Assembly (NCBI GenBank): GCA_043817405.1
Contig: JBDRGV010000062.1
Coordinates: forward strand, 1,267-65,266
Direction: 5' to 3'
Source: an archaeon
GTDB taxonomy: Archaea; Nanobdellota; Nanobdellia; Woesearchaeales; GCA-2686295
Length of the DNA: 64,000 nucleotides
Position 1 is the first letter of the stretch. Each line of letters opens with the position of its first letter. The notes under the pieces are model-generated. The model saw only the letters and a list, made by a program, of their open reading frames with translations, had not been told where the DNA came from and searched no databases. Position numbers and translations under genes: made by a program. Positions 21,247 through 24,879 of this stretch are shown in pieces.

Positions 21247-21513
21247 ATGGAAATTATGACATACAAAAAAAGAGATTTTTTGATTTCCGAAGATAAAAAT
21301 CTTCAGAATTTCGTAAAAATCAACAATAGGATACTGGACCAAGACAAACTAAAACGAGAAAGTTTGCTTGTAAAAAATCACATAATAATATCTATACATG
21401 ATTTGCTAAGACCCTATGGCTTTGAAAAGAAAAGAATAGGTTTTGTCAACGAAGATTTGAATATGAAGATAAAGTTTAAATTTGATAAAATTGAAAAGGA
21501 AGAAATTATTTGA
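21247..21513 (+). CDS. Hypothetical protein
   Basis: 88-aa ORF between the tRNA and the convergent radical SAM gene. No motif recognised. Confidence 0.3.
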   Translation: MEIMTYKKRDFLISEDKNLQNFVKINNRILDQDKLKRESLLVKNHIIISIHDLLRPYGFEKKRIGFVNEDLNMKIKFKFDKIEKEEII

Positions 21514-22543
21514 ATTCAGTAACAGAAAATTTTCTTAATGGACAAACAAATTTGTATTTCTCAGTATCATATTTTTTCAGATTAAACGATGAGAAATTAG
21601 TACAATAGCCACTACATTCATTGAAAACATCTGAAGAAACTTCTTTAAAGCAATTATCCCAAAGAGATTTATCATTCCAGATTTCTTTGACAGATTTTTC
21701 ATGAAGGTTGGCTATTGGTTTATGATATGAAGCCATGATTGCACAAGGGTAAACATTTCCATCAGGTAATATCTGCAAATGATAAGGATCATCGTCCATT
21801 ATACAACCCAATTTTTTCTTTGAAAAGTCTTTTTCAATCAACGGAACCTCAACTAAAAGCTTAATTTGCTCATTGTACTTCACCAGTTTTTCTCTGATAA
21901 AATTTAACCATTTGATTGGTTCAACCGATAACTCATCAGCAGAGTTTCCTCTTCCAATTGGTGTAAAATAATAAAGTCCATGCTCTTGTGCGCCTTTTTT
22001 TATTGCTAGTTCTGTTATATTAGGTATGTCTTCTAGGTTAGAACTGAAAACAACAGTGTTTATTTTAGTAGGCAATCCGATATTTACTGAGTCTTCTATT
22101 GTCTGCAATGTTTTGTTGAAAGATTCTTCACTTACTTTTCTTATTTTGTTGTAAACTTTGTAGTTAGAACCATCAAGACTTATGGCTGTCGAATCCAAGC
22201 CAAGATTTTTGTATTCTAATAATTCATTTTTTGTAATTAATGAACCATTGGTGACTAACTCTATTTTGAAATCATATTTTTTTCCTAGTTTGATTATTTC
22301 AGCAAGATCTTTTCTCACTGTTGGTTCGCCACCGGTAATATCAATTTTTTCACCGCCTAATTCTTTTGTTTCTCTGAGTATTGTTTCTAACTCATCTAAT
22401 GATAACTCATCCATCTTTTCAATTCCGGAATCAAATGCACAATGTACACATCTGAAATTGCATCTATTGGTTATGTTTAAATCTAGTTTAGGTAATTTTC
22501 TTGTATTCGTCATCATACAACCTCCTTTGTATTTTTTGATCAT
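21506..22543 (-). CDS. Radical SAM enzyme with C-terminal SPASM/twitch-like Cys cluster (rSAM-B)
   Basis: NITNRCNFRCVHCAF, ITGGEP, and C-terminal Cys residues (GCI..., YPCAI, CFKE, CSGYC, VCP). The likely start is M at 22516 or 22513. Confidence 0.75.
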   Translation of the reverse strand: MIKKYKGGCMMTNTRKLPKLDLNITNRCNFRCVHCAFDSGIEKMDELSLDELETILRETKELGGEKIDITGGEPTVRKDLAEIIKLGKKYDFKIELVTNGSLITKNELLEYKNLGLDSTAISLDGSNYKVYNKIRKVSEESFNKTLQTIEDSVNIGLPTKINTVVFSSNLEDIPNITELAIKKGAQEHGLYYFTPIGRGNSADELSVEPIKWLNFIREKLVKYNEQIKLLVEVPLIEKDFSKKKLGCIMDDDPYHLQILPDGNVYPCAIMASYHKPIANLHEKSVKEIWNDKSLWDNCFKEVSSDVFNECSGYCTNFSSFNLKKYDTEKYKFVCPLRKFSVTEFK

Positions 22544-23255
22544 CTACTTTAATTTGGATGTGGCCTATTTTATCTTTCAAACAAAGTTCTTCCTTTAATT
22601 TAGGATAATTATTTGTGTTAATGTCTTTGATAATCGGATAAGTCTCATATTTACATAAAGTGATGATTTCCTGTTTGTGAAAAAACAACTGAGAAGCAAT
22701 TCCATCTATAGCATATTGTCCAGCCATATCCCTGGCTTCTTCATATTTCTTTTTTCCATAATTCTGTTTTATGTACTTCAATCTATTTTTTGTACCATTT
22801 CTTGTAATATCCAAACATTGTTCTTTGAATCGTTCATTTTTATTTGCTAGATTTCTACATTCTAATAATTCTTTTTCAAAATCAAAATCATTCCACGAAT
22901 TAACTTTAATTTTGTTGGATATTTTATTTACAATACTTGAACATATTTCTTTAGAGTATTTTCCGACCAAATCAGATTCTTTTAGAGCTTCATATTCGCT
23001 CATGTTTTCAAAAGCCATTAAATTGTATTTCAGAAGTCCATCATTTATGAAAACAGAGAAGTTGTTGAAATATTCTAAACCAAATTCAGTAAAAACATCA
23101 ATTCTTTTCTTTTCAAGATATTTTTCAGTGTATTCTTCCAGACTTCTTGATTCAAATAAAGGATAACCAGGACTCACTATGAATATTCCATCGTAACTTT
23201 TTTTGTTTACGATTGCGTCAATTCCCTTTTCGTATGCAGATATTATTTGTGTCAT
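22488..23255 (-). CDS. Cyclodipeptide synthase (CDPS)-like protein
   Basis: Colinear blocks IFIVSPGYPLF, FKEQCLDITR, QYAIDGIASQLFF and LCKYETYP resemble the CDPS blocks of AlbC/YvmC. Start set to the ATG at 23255, which forms ATGA with the upstream stop. Call made from remembered motifs only. Confidence 0.5.
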   Translation of the reverse strand: MTQIISAYEKGIDAIVNKKSYDGIFIVSPGYPLFESRSLEEYTEKYLEKKRIDVFTEFGLEYFNNFSVFINDGLLKYNLMAFENMSEYEALKESDLVGKYSKEICSSIVNKISNKIKVNSWNDFDFEKELLECRNLANKNERFKEQCLDITRNGTKNRLKYIKQNYGKKKYEEARDMAGQYAIDGIASQLFFHKQEIITLCKYETYPIIKDINTNNYPKLKEELCLKDKIGHIQIKVDDQKIQRRLYDDEYKKIT

Positions 23256-24313
23256 TTTATTGGTATGTATAATGTGCATAGATACATCTCGTGAACATTC
23301 CATTCTTTTGAGAAATGTTGAGTTGGTTTTGGTCTTTTGTCAGTTGGTTCTAGCCAGCATAACGGATCTGGTCCGTTGAAATGTCCGTATTTTAAGTATG
23401 ATGCTCCTGCATCTCCTCCTTGACAATGATAATATGATGAACAGTTGTTACATTTTCCTTCTGGTTTTCTGTTTCTTATTTGTTTGAAAACAGGTGATTG
23501 AAATATTTCATCAATTGATTTAGTTTTGATATTACCACCGCTTGTTGCTAAAAAAACAGAGGGTGAAACTTCTCCGTTATGTTGTATTCTGAAAGCAGAA
23601 CTTCCTGATGGATCACCAGCAATAGAATATCTCCCGCCATGTGCAGCTCTGAATAATGGTTCTGGAACAGATACTGATTCATCGATGTATTGCGCGAAGA
23701 AATTAAATGCAGTTTTCAAATCATCTTTGCTTAAAGTTAGATAGTGTTTATTGTCAATTCCTCTTCCGTTTTCTCTGAATCTGTTGACACGCCAGTTGTT
23801 AACATTTAATTCTTTTGCAAGAGAGTACATTTTTTGTAATTCATCGATTGAACAATTAAGTTTTGTCAGACATGTAACGATTTCTGTATCAACACCTTTT
23901 TCAACTAGTTTTTCAATTGTTGAGGTTGCTCGTTCAAATGTTCCTAGAACTCCTCTGAACCAATCATGCTTTTCTGCGTTGCTAAAATCGAGGCTAACAC
24001 CTATGTCGCTGAATAAATTTAAGTGGTTTTCAATTAGAGGAAATGTTGTTCCATTTGTGGTGTAAGATATTTTTATTTTGTTTTTTTTGAGTTCTTTGCA
24101 GATATCTATGAAGTCTTCTCTTATGTTGCATTCTCCACCGCCAAAGTTGACTGCTGCTACTTTTGCTTTTTTTAACTTTTTTATTACTTTGAAAGCTTCT
24201 TTTGTTGTTAATTCATCAGGATCTGCTTTTCCAGAAGCGTTGTAACAATGAAGGCATTTCAAGTTGCATCTTTTTGTAAGAGACCATCCTGCAATCAATG
24301 GATTTTCTACCAT
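23252..24313 (-). CDS. Radical SAM enzyme with SPASM domain (rSAM-A)
   Basis: LTKRCNLKCLHCYN, FGGGEC, and the C-terminal GKCNNCSSYYHCQGG...DPLCW Cys motif. Confidence 0.8.
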   Translation of the reverse strand: MVENPLIAGWSLTKRCNLKCLHCYNASGKADPDELTTKEAFKVIKKLKKAKVAAVNFGGGECNIREDFIDICKELKKNKIKISYTTNGTTFPLIENHLNLFSDIGVSLDFSNAEKHDWFRGVLGTFERATSTIEKLVEKGVDTEIVTCLTKLNCSIDELQKMYSLAKELNVNNWRVNRFRENGRGIDNKHYLTLSKDDLKTAFNFFAQYIDESVSVPEPLFRAAHGGRYSIAGDPSGSSAFRIQHNGEVSPSVFLATSGGNIKTKSIDEIFQSPVFKQIRNRKPEGKCNNCSSYYHCQGGDAGASYLKYGHFNGPDPLCWLEPTDKRPKPTQHFSKEWNVHEMYLCTLYIPIK

Positions 24314-24879
24314 TTCATCACCTTCAAATCTTCTATGTTTTGTTTTAGTTTCTCTCCTCTGAGTTTTTTTGCAGAGTCAGTATAATAATTTACATGATTC
24401 AAGAAAAGTGGCATTTGTTTTTCATACCATTTCTTTTTTTCAAATCCTCCTTCGATGCGACATAATTCTGATTTTTCAAAAAAGTCATATCTTCCAAGAT
24501 TGTCTAAATCCGCGTCACAAATTATTTTCTCTGAAATGTTTTGTGGATTTGTTGGTAATCTTGTTGCCATTATCAGTTTTCTAACTTTTTTAATTTCTTC
24601 AGTTGTGTAGTTTAATGTTGATAGAATTTTATTGGTTATGTCAACTGTTTTTTCTTCATTAAATATGCCTCCTACTTCGAAATATAAGTCGTGAGTCAAG
24701 GCCGCTGTTCTTAGAATGTATGTATTGTGTTCATCTAATCCTTCCATTTGTGCGTACATCTTACAAGCATTATCAACTTCTTGCATATGTGTCCAGTTAT
24801 GGAATTGTAAGTTTGGTGCTAATGATTTTACTATTTCTGATAATTCCTTGAGTTTTTTTTCGTAATTCATTTTCATCAC
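24307..24879 (-). CDS. HD-domain metal-dependent phosphohydrolase
   Basis: HNWTHMQEV ... AALTHDL (H...HD) ... CDADLDNLG. Confidence 0.7.
   Translation of the reverse strand: MMKMNYEKKLKELSEIVKSLAPNLQFHNWTHMQEVDNACKMYAQMEGLDEHNTYILRTAALTHDLYFEVGGIFNEEKTVDITNKILSTLNYTTEEIKKVRKLIMATRLPTNPQNISEKIICDADLDNLGRYDFFEKSELCRIEGGFEKKKWYEKQMPLFLNHVNYYTDSAKKLRGEKLKQNIEDLKVMKW

Follow-up and report, generated by a model that had tools for sequence, protein, structure and literature searches.

The locus described here raises the question of what an archaeal operon might do in which a gene resembling a cyclodipeptide synthase (CDPS) is placed between two radical S-adenosylmethionine (SAM) genes. The operon lies in a 64,000-nucleotide (nt) stretch of contig JBDRGV010000062.1 (assembly GCA_043817405.1, Woesearchaeales); this whole stretch is called the window, and all positions follow its numbering. 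A first-pass annotation, made from the letters alone, had proposed that the middle gene, an open reading frame (ORF) of 255 amino acids (aa), makes a tRNA-dependent diketopiperazine that is modified by the two radical SAM enzymes, termed rSAM-A and rSAM-B below. The observation behind this proposal was confirmed, while its pathway logic was only partly supported. The reading preferred here, the chances of which are put a little short of even, is of an operon in two layers: a radical-SAM core that would work on nucleoside phosphates, and an accessory CDPS-fold enzyme that would feed it with a unit derived from aminoacyl-tRNA.

From the ORF listing, and from the junctions read directly in the sequence, four co-directional, translationally coupled genes were identified on the minus strand, as had been described at first pass. 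The first gene (24307..24879; probable start ATG 24876) encodes a YpgQ-like HD-domain phosphohydrolase of 189–190 aa, and is followed by rSAM-A (23252..24313; ATG 24313), a radical SAM protein with a partial SPASM domain; by the divergent CDPS-fold protein of 255 aa (22488..23255; ATG 23255); and by rSAM-B (21506..22516; longest ORF from 22543), a radical SAM protein with a twitch-like, single auxiliary-cluster domain. The HD ORF terminates in ...ATGGTAG, and these last 7 nt lie within rSAM-A, which begins at ATG 24313. The sequence ATGA at 23252–23255 comprises the TGA stop of rSAM-A and the ATG of the 255-aa ORF, and the stop of the latter (22488–22490) falls within rSAM-B. Reading of the 255-aa protein from ATG 23255 is correct, since its homologues (P0002, P0003) and a gene call in the database (P0001) begin there. 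The most likely start of rSAM-B is ATG 22516, which is 5 nt past a GGAGG and gives an overlap of 29 nt with the 255-aa ORF; rSAM-B orthologues begin at the equivalent point. A tandem (duplicated) Lrp/AsnC-family regulator gene (24965..25981, plus strand) is divergently transcribed from the operon, the two being separated by a control region of 85 nt (24880..24964).

Single-sequence scores of the 255-aa ORF were below the annotation thresholds for CDPSs, at 18.2 bits for Pfam PF16715 (gathering score 27) and 24.4 bits for TIGR04539 (cut-off 45); two family relatives, P0004 and P0008, reached 24.3 and 26.6 bits for PF16715. Since a phmmer search of the PDB sequences with the ORF as single query returned only noise, profiles were needed. 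A three-sequence profile, compared with 1.84 billion representative proteins, produced 34 matches, of which about a dozen (approximately 12 representative clusters) belonged to the ORF's own family. Fifteen of the outer matches were scanned; 12 were above the Pfam CDPS gathering score, and CDPS was the sole hit, sub-threshold, for the other three. The first-pass annotation had suggested a CDPS profile search, and this failed at the Pfam and NCBIfam cut-offs but succeeded when profile was aligned with profile: hhalign matched the family to the Pfam-positive CDPSs with a probability of 100% (E = 1.3e-45, 232 columns). Against the PDB, the top matches of a 13-member family profile were CDPS structures only (9GUN, 3.8e-8; BtCDPS, 1e-7; AlbC, 1e-3), and a bridging profile matched 9GUN at 3.9e-24. 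This entry, a putative CDPS of Porphyromonas gingivalis, is the nearest solved CDPS in sequence.

Structure prediction, which had also been suggested, agreed with the profiles. The AlphaFold2 model of the 255-aa protein (predicted local distance difference test (pLDDT) 92.5, predicted template modelling score (pTM) 0.89) has a CDPS fold, and the first 46 matches of a Foldseek search of the PDB were all CDPS structures (template modelling score (TM) up to 0.69/0.77), with tyrosyl-tRNA synthetases coming next. The Rossmann-like fold of AlbC, YvmC and Rv2275 is common to the protein (TM 0.6–0.77 to solved CDPSs), as are a length of approximately 250 aa and the colinear motifs with the nucleophile serine of G/x-[IV]-S and the tyrosine of YxxxE. 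Profile comparison and predicted structure place the 255-aa protein, as a divergent homologue, in the CDPS superfamily and fold. Its family appears to fall outside the NYH and XYP subfamilies, and diketopiperazine formation by the protein is putative.

Three of the four colinear blocks that had been likened to CDPS motifs were aligned as such in the hidden Markov model (HMM) and profile alignments; the fourth, LCKYETYP, corresponds only approximately to xYP or NYH. Two positions were invariant among 13 family members, namely S28, which aligned with the serine of the GIS motif (AlbC S37) and is the candidate nucleophile, and Y181, which aligned with the tyrosine of YxxxE (AlbC Y178). The caution expressed at first pass over the glutamate of this motif was justified, as in the window protein the canonical position (Y+4, AlbC E182) is occupied by Gly185, and Y+3 by Asp184. 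At least one acidic residue is present at Y+3 or Y+4 in every family member, although its place is not fixed. Both HMMER and hhalign placed C201 or S201 opposite the tyrosine of the NYH/XYP triad (AlbC Y202), and this residue is followed by an invariant K202-Y203-E, so that [S/C]-K-Y-E apparently replaces the NYH/XYP signature. Further family features were P32, G231-H232 (common also to the nearest Pfam-positive CDPS clade), Q234 (within G231-H232-x-Q234) and D248. The protein therefore differs from the CDPSs above in its sub-threshold scores, Gly185 at Y+4, the [S/C]-K-Y-E sequence, an extra C-terminal YDDE tail and its archaeal host. This acidic-aromatic tail, [Y/C]-D-D-E-[Y/F] (window 22488–22520), is conserved in the family and poorly ordered in the model (pLDDT 42–74); conceivably, the SPASM enzymes may use the tail as a substrate.

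To our knowledge, CDPSs have been described almost exclusively in bacteria, apart from a few in eukaryotes. The first-pass annotation had regarded archaeal CDPSs as rare; the gene is archaeal in the database: NCBI records of the family come from 'Nanoarchaeota archaeon' or 'archaeon' metagenome-assembled genomes (MAGs), and the family thus extends the CDPS fold into DPANN archaea. Since its members lie under the annotation thresholds, current pipelines name them 'hypothetical protein', and they are so named in these records. A review of 2014 stated that no archaeal CDPS was then known (PMC4159871), and later CDPS overviews in the searched literature mentioned neither archaeal CDPSs nor radical SAM partners.

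Ten distinct loci bear the CDPS-like gene: the window (with L003, a copy identical to it), L001/L002, L004, L005/L006, L007/L008, L009, L010, L011, L014 and L015. In all ten it is found between rSAM-A and rSAM-B, or beside whichever of them a short contig retains. The divergent tandem Lrp gene was present in five of these loci (window, L001, L004, L007, L011) and the small HD gene in three (window, L004, L011), while a gene of the thymidylate-kinase family overlapped the end of rSAM-B in four (L001, L005, L007, L011). A word-indexed protein search with a 13-sequence profile recovered 5 members and was not used as a family count. Scans of the GTDB representative genomes with the patterns AY[GE]KGIDA/LEEY..Y and LLxYNLMAF found no relative. 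One member, P0013 (L014, 1447–2613), is 388 aa in length, approximately 120 residues longer than the others, and matches the family profile in two stretches; it may contain an insertion or an added domain.

The radical SAM genes are far more numerous. At least 173 close homologues of rSAM-A were identified at E ≤ 1e-20, with identities of 51–70% among the 120 matches listed; where named, they came from Nanoarchaeota, Pacearchaeota, Woesearchaeota, Nanoarchaeia and one 'Thermoproteota', and an identical copy of the window rSAM-A is recorded as 'MAG: radical SAM protein [archaeon]'. Three loci were inspected in which the operon occurs in a different form. In L016, from a 1.56-Mb woesearchaeotal contig, an Lrp gene is divergent from rSAM-A, rSAM-B and a thymidylate-kinase-like (Tmk-like) gene; in L017, labelled Thermoproteota, it is divergent from HD, rSAM-A, rSAM-B and a Tmk-like gene; and in L018/L019, with neighbours encoding EF-P, DnaN, HU and FtsH, a TrmB gene is divergent from an HD::rSAM-A fusion and rSAM-B. 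Search of the fetched flanks of these loci with the family HMM identified no CDPS-like ORF. The genes of L016, L017 and L018 were orthologous to those of the window, with identities of 63–67% for rSAM-A, 37–57% for rSAM-B, 42–46% for HD and 45–46% for Lrp.

In the phylogeny of rSAM-A the loci lacking the CDPS-like gene were interleaved with those bearing it. The CDPS-like proteins were also more divergent, with identities of 24–65% against 50–77% for the flanking rSAM proteins; between L007 and L011, for instance, rSAM-A was 77% identical while the CDPS-like protein was 32% identical. Taken together, the loci without the gene, the interleaved tree and the faster divergence indicate that the CDPS-like gene is an accessory of patchy occurrence, which occupies one fixed site of an operon that is itself widespread. 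It was either ancestral and lost repeatedly, or moved between operons by means of the conserved flanks. In a minority of operons, then, a fast-evolving CDPS-fold gene is situated exactly between, and coupled to, both rSAM genes. The expectation that homologues of the two would be conserved together was realised in one direction only: the CDPS-like gene was always beside the rSAM genes (10 loci), but the latter were found without it at three. Given orthologous HD, rSAM-A and rSAM-B genes with no CDPS-like gene nearby, the rSAM pair is not a tailoring set dedicated to the CDPS product, and this part of the first-pass proposal was not upheld.

Comparison of the loci therefore resolves a first layer, composed of the predicted HD, rSAM-A and rSAM-B proteins, with a kinase gene after rSAM-B in most related loci. 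As a single sequence, the HD protein fell just under the Pfam HD gathering score (E = 8e-4, 20.1 bits against 22). The motif H...H...HD...DxDxD(N)LGR was invariant in four HD orthologues (H26, H30, H62-D63, D121, D123), and a profile of the orthologues matched HD hydrolases in the PDB, namely 3djb (8.9e-9), 2pq7 and 5dqv; the last we take to be YpgQ, with NTP pyrophosphohydrolase activity. Orthologues were present in L011, L017 and L004, while L018 encodes the domain as a fusion with rSAM-A. This natural fusion, P0069, is 550 aa in length (L018, 4360–6012; also L019, 647–2299), and its bacterial-type neighbours suggest either that the core module crosses the boundary between domains of life or that the contig is misassigned.

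The kinase of the related loci scored 41–58 bits with Pfam Thymidylate_kin (gathering score 27) and missed the dTMP-kinase equivalog cut-off (47–70 against 83). Its Tmk P-loop, EGxDxxGKT, and DR motif are invariant, and its profile matched thymidylate kinases only in the PDB. As the window has a ThyA-DHFR-Tmk set of its own at 7669–9836, the operon-borne kinase of the other loci is a dedicated paralogue. The two accessory genes, a YpgQ-like HD hydrolase and a kinase of the thymidylate-kinase family, are thus predicted nucleotide enzymes, which counts against the pathway proposed at first pass.

Both radical SAM proteins carry the motifs and C-terminal cysteine clusters previously noted, and both passed the Pfam thresholds for Radical_SAM and SPASM. 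For rSAM-A (CNLKCLHC) the values were 2.8e-21 and 9e-9; its conserved cysteines comprise CX3CX2C, C62, C72, C148 and a C-terminal CX2CX5C...C...C, without CX9-15GX4C, in keeping with a partial SPASM domain. For rSAM-B (CNFRCVHC) the values were 9e-30 and 3e-9, and its CX3CX2C, CX14GX4C and two further cysteines are twitch-like; the subfamily assignment that had been called for was thereby made. Neither protein reached any of the NCBIfam equivalog cut-offs considered (MftC, PqqE, AhbC/D, NirJ, MoaA, viperin, sactisynthases). The best score for rSAM-A was 167 bits (TIGR04053, cut-off 395) and the smallest shortfall was with MftC (155 against 265). For rSAM-B, NirJ2 (143 bits, cut-off 500) and archaeal MoaA (127) scored highest, far under their cut-offs, the closest approach being to NF001199 MoaA (114 against 231 bits); its PDB matches were MoaA, PqqE and BlsE. 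The first-pass annotation had named a match to a characterised cofactor or lipid pathway as grounds for abandoning its proposal, and no such match to the operon was found above any curated cut-off.

The regulator likewise forms part of the first layer. Direct reading of the control region confirmed that a TATA-like sequence, TTTATATAAAT (24943–24953), adjoins the palindrome TTTTTCGAAAAA (24932–24943), as previously observed, and identified a second box, CTTCTTATAA (24901–24910), approximately 25 nt upstream of the HD start. The order TATATAAAT, TTTTCG(G)AAAA, approximately 25 nt, CTTTCTTATA is repeated in L001, L007 and L011, and in a weaker form in L004, so that both the palindrome and the tandem Lrp gene are conserved in related loci. 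The Lrp protein contains two HTH_24/HTH_AsnC stretches and AsnC_trans_reg according to Pfam, and its best NCBIfam matches were LrpA and LysM. Its orthologues are divergently placed in L001, L004, L007, L011, L016 and L017, and are replaced by TrmB in L018. This replacement, together with the conserved operator-like arrangement, suggests that the Lrp protein is a regulator rather than an enzyme of AhbA/B type, and it is predicted to control the module through the palindrome as candidate site.

A phosphohydrolase, modifying enzymes and a dedicated kinase of nucleoside monophosphate (NMP) type follow the logic of modification at the nucleotide level, and by analogy the core is probably a radical-SAM module that acts on a phosphorylated nucleoside. 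A precedent is provided by OxsA and OxsB, an HD phosphohydrolase and a radical SAM enzyme that act jointly on dAMP, dADP and dATP (PMC7074753). As with OxsA/OxsB, the HD gene is genetically coupled to a radical SAM gene, and the two are fused in P0069; unlike the B12-dependent OxsB, however, rSAM-A and rSAM-B carry SPASM and twitch domains but lack a B12 domain. Any likeness in sequence to OxsA/OxsB is at superfamily level. In the two-layer operon, the HD enzyme would remove phosphates from a phosphorylated nucleoside, rSAM-A and rSAM-B would alter its sugar or base by radical chemistry, and in those loci that have it the kinase would re-phosphorylate the product. The CDPS-fold enzyme would take an aminoacyl group from aminoacyl-tRNA onto Ser28 and hand it on, either as a single unit or as a diketopiperazine, the end product being an amino-acid-decorated small molecule.

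A more specific form of this reading, which is considered unlikely, is that DPANN archaea, and at least one organism where the operon has bacterial-type neighbours, possess a modified-nucleotide pathway of two radical SAM enzymes, an HD hydrolase and a dedicated kinase, into which the CDPS-fold enzyme was recruited, in some of the lineages, to aminoacylate the product from aminoacyl-tRNA or to attach a diketopiperazine to it. If true, the CDPS family would thereby gain its first archaeal enzyme, and this could be the first protein of CDPS fold with an acceptor other than simply a second aminoacyl-tRNA. CDPS pathways of the guatyromycine/guanitrypmycin type are reported to couple diketopiperazines to nucleobases by means of cytochrome P450 (PMC9401060). 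They offer a precedent for a CDPS product and a purine joined in one pathway; but they involve P450s and aerobic actinomycetes, and have no homology to the operon enzymes. Were the core to act on nucleotides, it could provide episymbiotic archaea with a new way of making modified nucleotides, and insertion of the CDPS-like gene would link aminoacyl-tRNA to nucleotide chemistry. The HD/rSAM/rSAM/(kinase) operon is highly conserved and widespread in very small genomes; no description of it was found by searching the literature on CDPSs together with radical SAM, SPASM, DPANN or Porphyromonas, and on radical SAM and thymidylate in connection with DPANN. Its components are all small soluble proteins, and are amenable to work in vitro.

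Several points weigh against the two-layer reading. In the window, no Tmk-like kinase or kinase homologue is found downstream of rSAM-B, and the operon kinase of other loci could act on a substrate other than a nucleotide. Regulators of the Lrp family usually respond to amino acids rather than to nucleotides. The AlphaFold2 model of rSAM-A (pLDDT 93.5) was nearest to SkfB, SuiB, BlsE and anSME (TM 0.70–0.73), and to PqqE; its closest folds are thus peptide- or protein-modifying SPASM enzymes, with viperins and MoaA ranking lower, although a fold search with this model does not discriminate between peptide and nucleotide substrates. The helix aligned to residues 87–112 of the CDPS-like protein, which we take to be the tRNA-binding helix alpha4 of CDPSs, has a net charge between -3 and +4, and of +1 or less in 8 of the 9 family members scored; since it is not basic, use of tRNA by the family is not established, and the basic stretch of the protein is found at 141–166 instead. 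Finally, the loci without the CDPS-like gene are a small sample, three being inspected with approximately 4–7 kb of flank on each side, and their genomes could encode the gene elsewhere.

The alternative nearest to the first-pass proposal is that two aminoacyl-tRNAs are used by the CDPS-like enzyme to form a 2,5-diketopiperazine, which the rSAM pair cross-links or otherwise tailors, as anaerobic counterparts of tailoring by P450 or cyclodipeptide oxidase (CDO), the HD enzyme performing a side step. The CDPS fold with its conserved serine and tyrosine is consistent with this, as are the tight translational coupling to both rSAM genes and the position between them at every carrying locus. In addition, the nearest Pfam-positive CDPS, P0015, directly follows a B12-binding radical SAM gene, and a radical SAM enzyme is listed among the putative neighbours of CDPS genes in the 2014 review, where it is only one among many (PMC4159871). 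However, rSAM-A, rSAM-B and HD orthologues without a nearby CDPS-like gene are far more numerous, the glutamate at Y+4 is replaced by Gly185 and is variable in the family, the NYH/XYP signature appears to be absent, and neither the HD nor the Tmk-like partner has a role in diketopiperazine chemistry. On these grounds the alternative is regarded as unlikely. A separate difference from the CDPSs is one of setting, the 255-aa ORF being embedded in an HD/rSAM/rSAM operon and not placed beside P450, CDO or methyltransferase genes.

The locus of P0015 itself is another uncharacterised pairing of CDPS and radical SAM, from an uncultivated organism. P0015 (225 aa) overlaps the end of the 464-aa B12-binding radical SAM gene (L012, 1023–3081; L013, 797–2855), and a divergent TrmB regulator gene is situated upstream of the pair.

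A second alternative, which is improbable, concerns modification of a peptide or protein encoded elsewhere, in the manner of peptides that are made on the ribosome and then modified (RiPPs), with the CDPS-like enzyme adding an amino acid from aminoacyl-tRNA. The nearest neighbours of the rSAM-A model (SkfB, SuiB, anSME, PqqE), the NCBIfam similarity to MftC, GeoRSP and sactipeptide maturases, and a regulator of the amino-acid-sensing Lrp type all point in this direction. The first-pass annotation had seen no precursor-peptide ORF in or beside the operon, and the wider comparison agreed, since no free-standing ORF of 15–70 aa was conserved across nine loci; those small ORFs that were conserved were all shadows within known genes. 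Moreover, rSAM-A begins directly with the radical SAM core, having no N-terminal extension or recognition domain, which together with the missing small ORF makes a local RiPP cluster unlikely. No NCBIfam maturase cut-off was approached, and the HD and Tmk-like partners would be left unexplained.

Modification of tRNA or another RNA is rated as quite improbable. Here the rSAM proteins and the kinase would act on a tRNA nucleoside, while the CDPS-fold partner would bind tRNA and add an amino acid to the base. In the CDPS fold there is a scaffold that depends on tRNA and has class Ic aminoacyl-tRNA synthetases as relatives (PMC4159871). One kinase showed weak similarity to KTI12 and AAA_33, the core is strongly conserved in reduced genomes, and a tRNA gene is located 290 nt away in the window. 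This intron-containing tRNA-like gene with a GAA anticodon (21105–21218, plus strand; Rfam 39.4 bits) had been part of the first-pass argument; its presence was verified, but not its conservation. Rfam detected it in the window alone and found none in six other loci, so that the link between tRNA and operon is not conserved; ARAGORN reported no tRNA in the window, where it missed this gene, or in the six other loci. Against tRNA modification there is also the Tmk signature of the kinase, the resemblance of the HD protein to hydrolases of free nucleotides, and the failure to match any known tRNA-modification family.

The tRNA-like gene has an anticodon loop of CU-GAA-A, and would therefore be a tRNA-Phe, with a 30-nt insert after position 37. 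A further segment of 15 nt occupies the place of the variable arm; such a segment is not usual in tRNA-Phe, and may represent a second intron of non-canonical type. A Taw1/TYW1-type wyosine radical SAM gene (14539–15621, minus strand) is 5.5 kb from it. The substrate of this enzyme type is tRNA-Phe, although the closeness of the two genes is probably coincidental.

It is very improbable that the operon encodes viperin-like defence or antagonism, whereby the rSAM proteins would produce an inhibitory analogue from an NTP, with the substrate being supplied by the kinase. The only PADLOC matches of the rSAM proteins were to pVip models, including 'Viperins associated with kinases' (rSAM-A 79.6, rSAM-B 95.7 bits), viperins were among the fold matches, and a kinase of the NMP-kinase family and an HD gene are linked to the rSAM genes. 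These matches, however, cover the generic radical SAM core only. Whereas viperins have no auxiliary clusters, rSAM-A and rSAM-B both carry auxiliary-cluster domains, and the operon combines two different rSAM proteins with an HD gene under Lrp regulation; high conservation across orders (55–70% identity) and control by Lrp look metabolic rather than defensive. Among IMG/VR viral contigs no orthologue was found, only generic radical SAM proteins at no more than 28% identity over alignments of at least 150 residues. Both a viral origin and a known defence system were rejected, the former from the IMG/VR result and the latter from the generic nature of the pVip core matches.

The weakest alternative, a haem or haem d1-type pathway in which the tandem Lrp protein would be a siroheme decarboxylase (fused AhbA/B or NirDL) and the rSAM proteins analogues of AhbC/AhbD or NirJ, has in its favour the shared association of an Lrp-fold protein with two SPASM-family rSAM proteins, matches of the Lrp protein to AhbA, AhbB and Pfam NirdL-like_HTH (29.5 bits, gathering score 27), matches of both rSAM proteins to NirJ2, AhbD and AhbC, and a JGI homologue of rSAM-A auto-named Fe-coproporphyrin III synthase, but is barely credible and was rejected, as the scores are all far under the equivalog cut-offs, by 4–6 fold with AhbD (126–132 against 500 bits) and AhbC (101–105 against 650), and also with AhbA (61 against 140) and AhbB (54 against 125), LrpA and LysM outscore the Ahb models, the Lrp gene behaves as a divergent regulator with its conserved operator-like palindrome and its TrmB substitute in L018, and the Ahb and Nir pathways have no counterpart of the CDPS-like, HD and Tmk-like genes, which would be left unexplained.

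Elsewhere in the window, archaeal features include an archaeal-type CCA-adding enzyme, Taw1, the intron-containing tRNA and TATA-like promoter boxes. A deoxynucleotide cluster at 6534–10563 contains a kinase-dCMP-deaminase fusion, ThyA, DHFR and a Tmk-like gene, with an NrdG-type activase on the opposite strand; ThyA scored 287 bits, while the Tmk-like gene scored 64 bits, under the dTMP-kinase cut-off, and the fusion showed a weak match to anti-phage dCTP deaminase. The presence of canonical ThyA, DHFR and the Tmk-like gene led to rejection of the rSAM module as a novel thymidylate synthase.

Other observations concerned genes with no place in the operon. In L007 the operon is flanked (2757–4431 and 9229–10701) by genes for a dGTPase-like HD protein of 350 aa, a Trbp111-like tRNA-binding protein and a MetRS-like synthetase, none of which is conserved at other loci. 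In the window, a tandem winged-helix paralogue with 25–27% identity to the Lrp-like regulator (16643–17674, minus strand) is divergent from an ATP-grasp ligase of YheC/D, STM4014 or MptN-like type (17735–18802, plus strand), and the two may be another pair of regulator and amino-acid ligase. A single ORF of 2170 aa (44234–50746, plus strand) falls in a stretch with raised GC content (about 0.36–0.38) and a peak in GC skew of +0.34.

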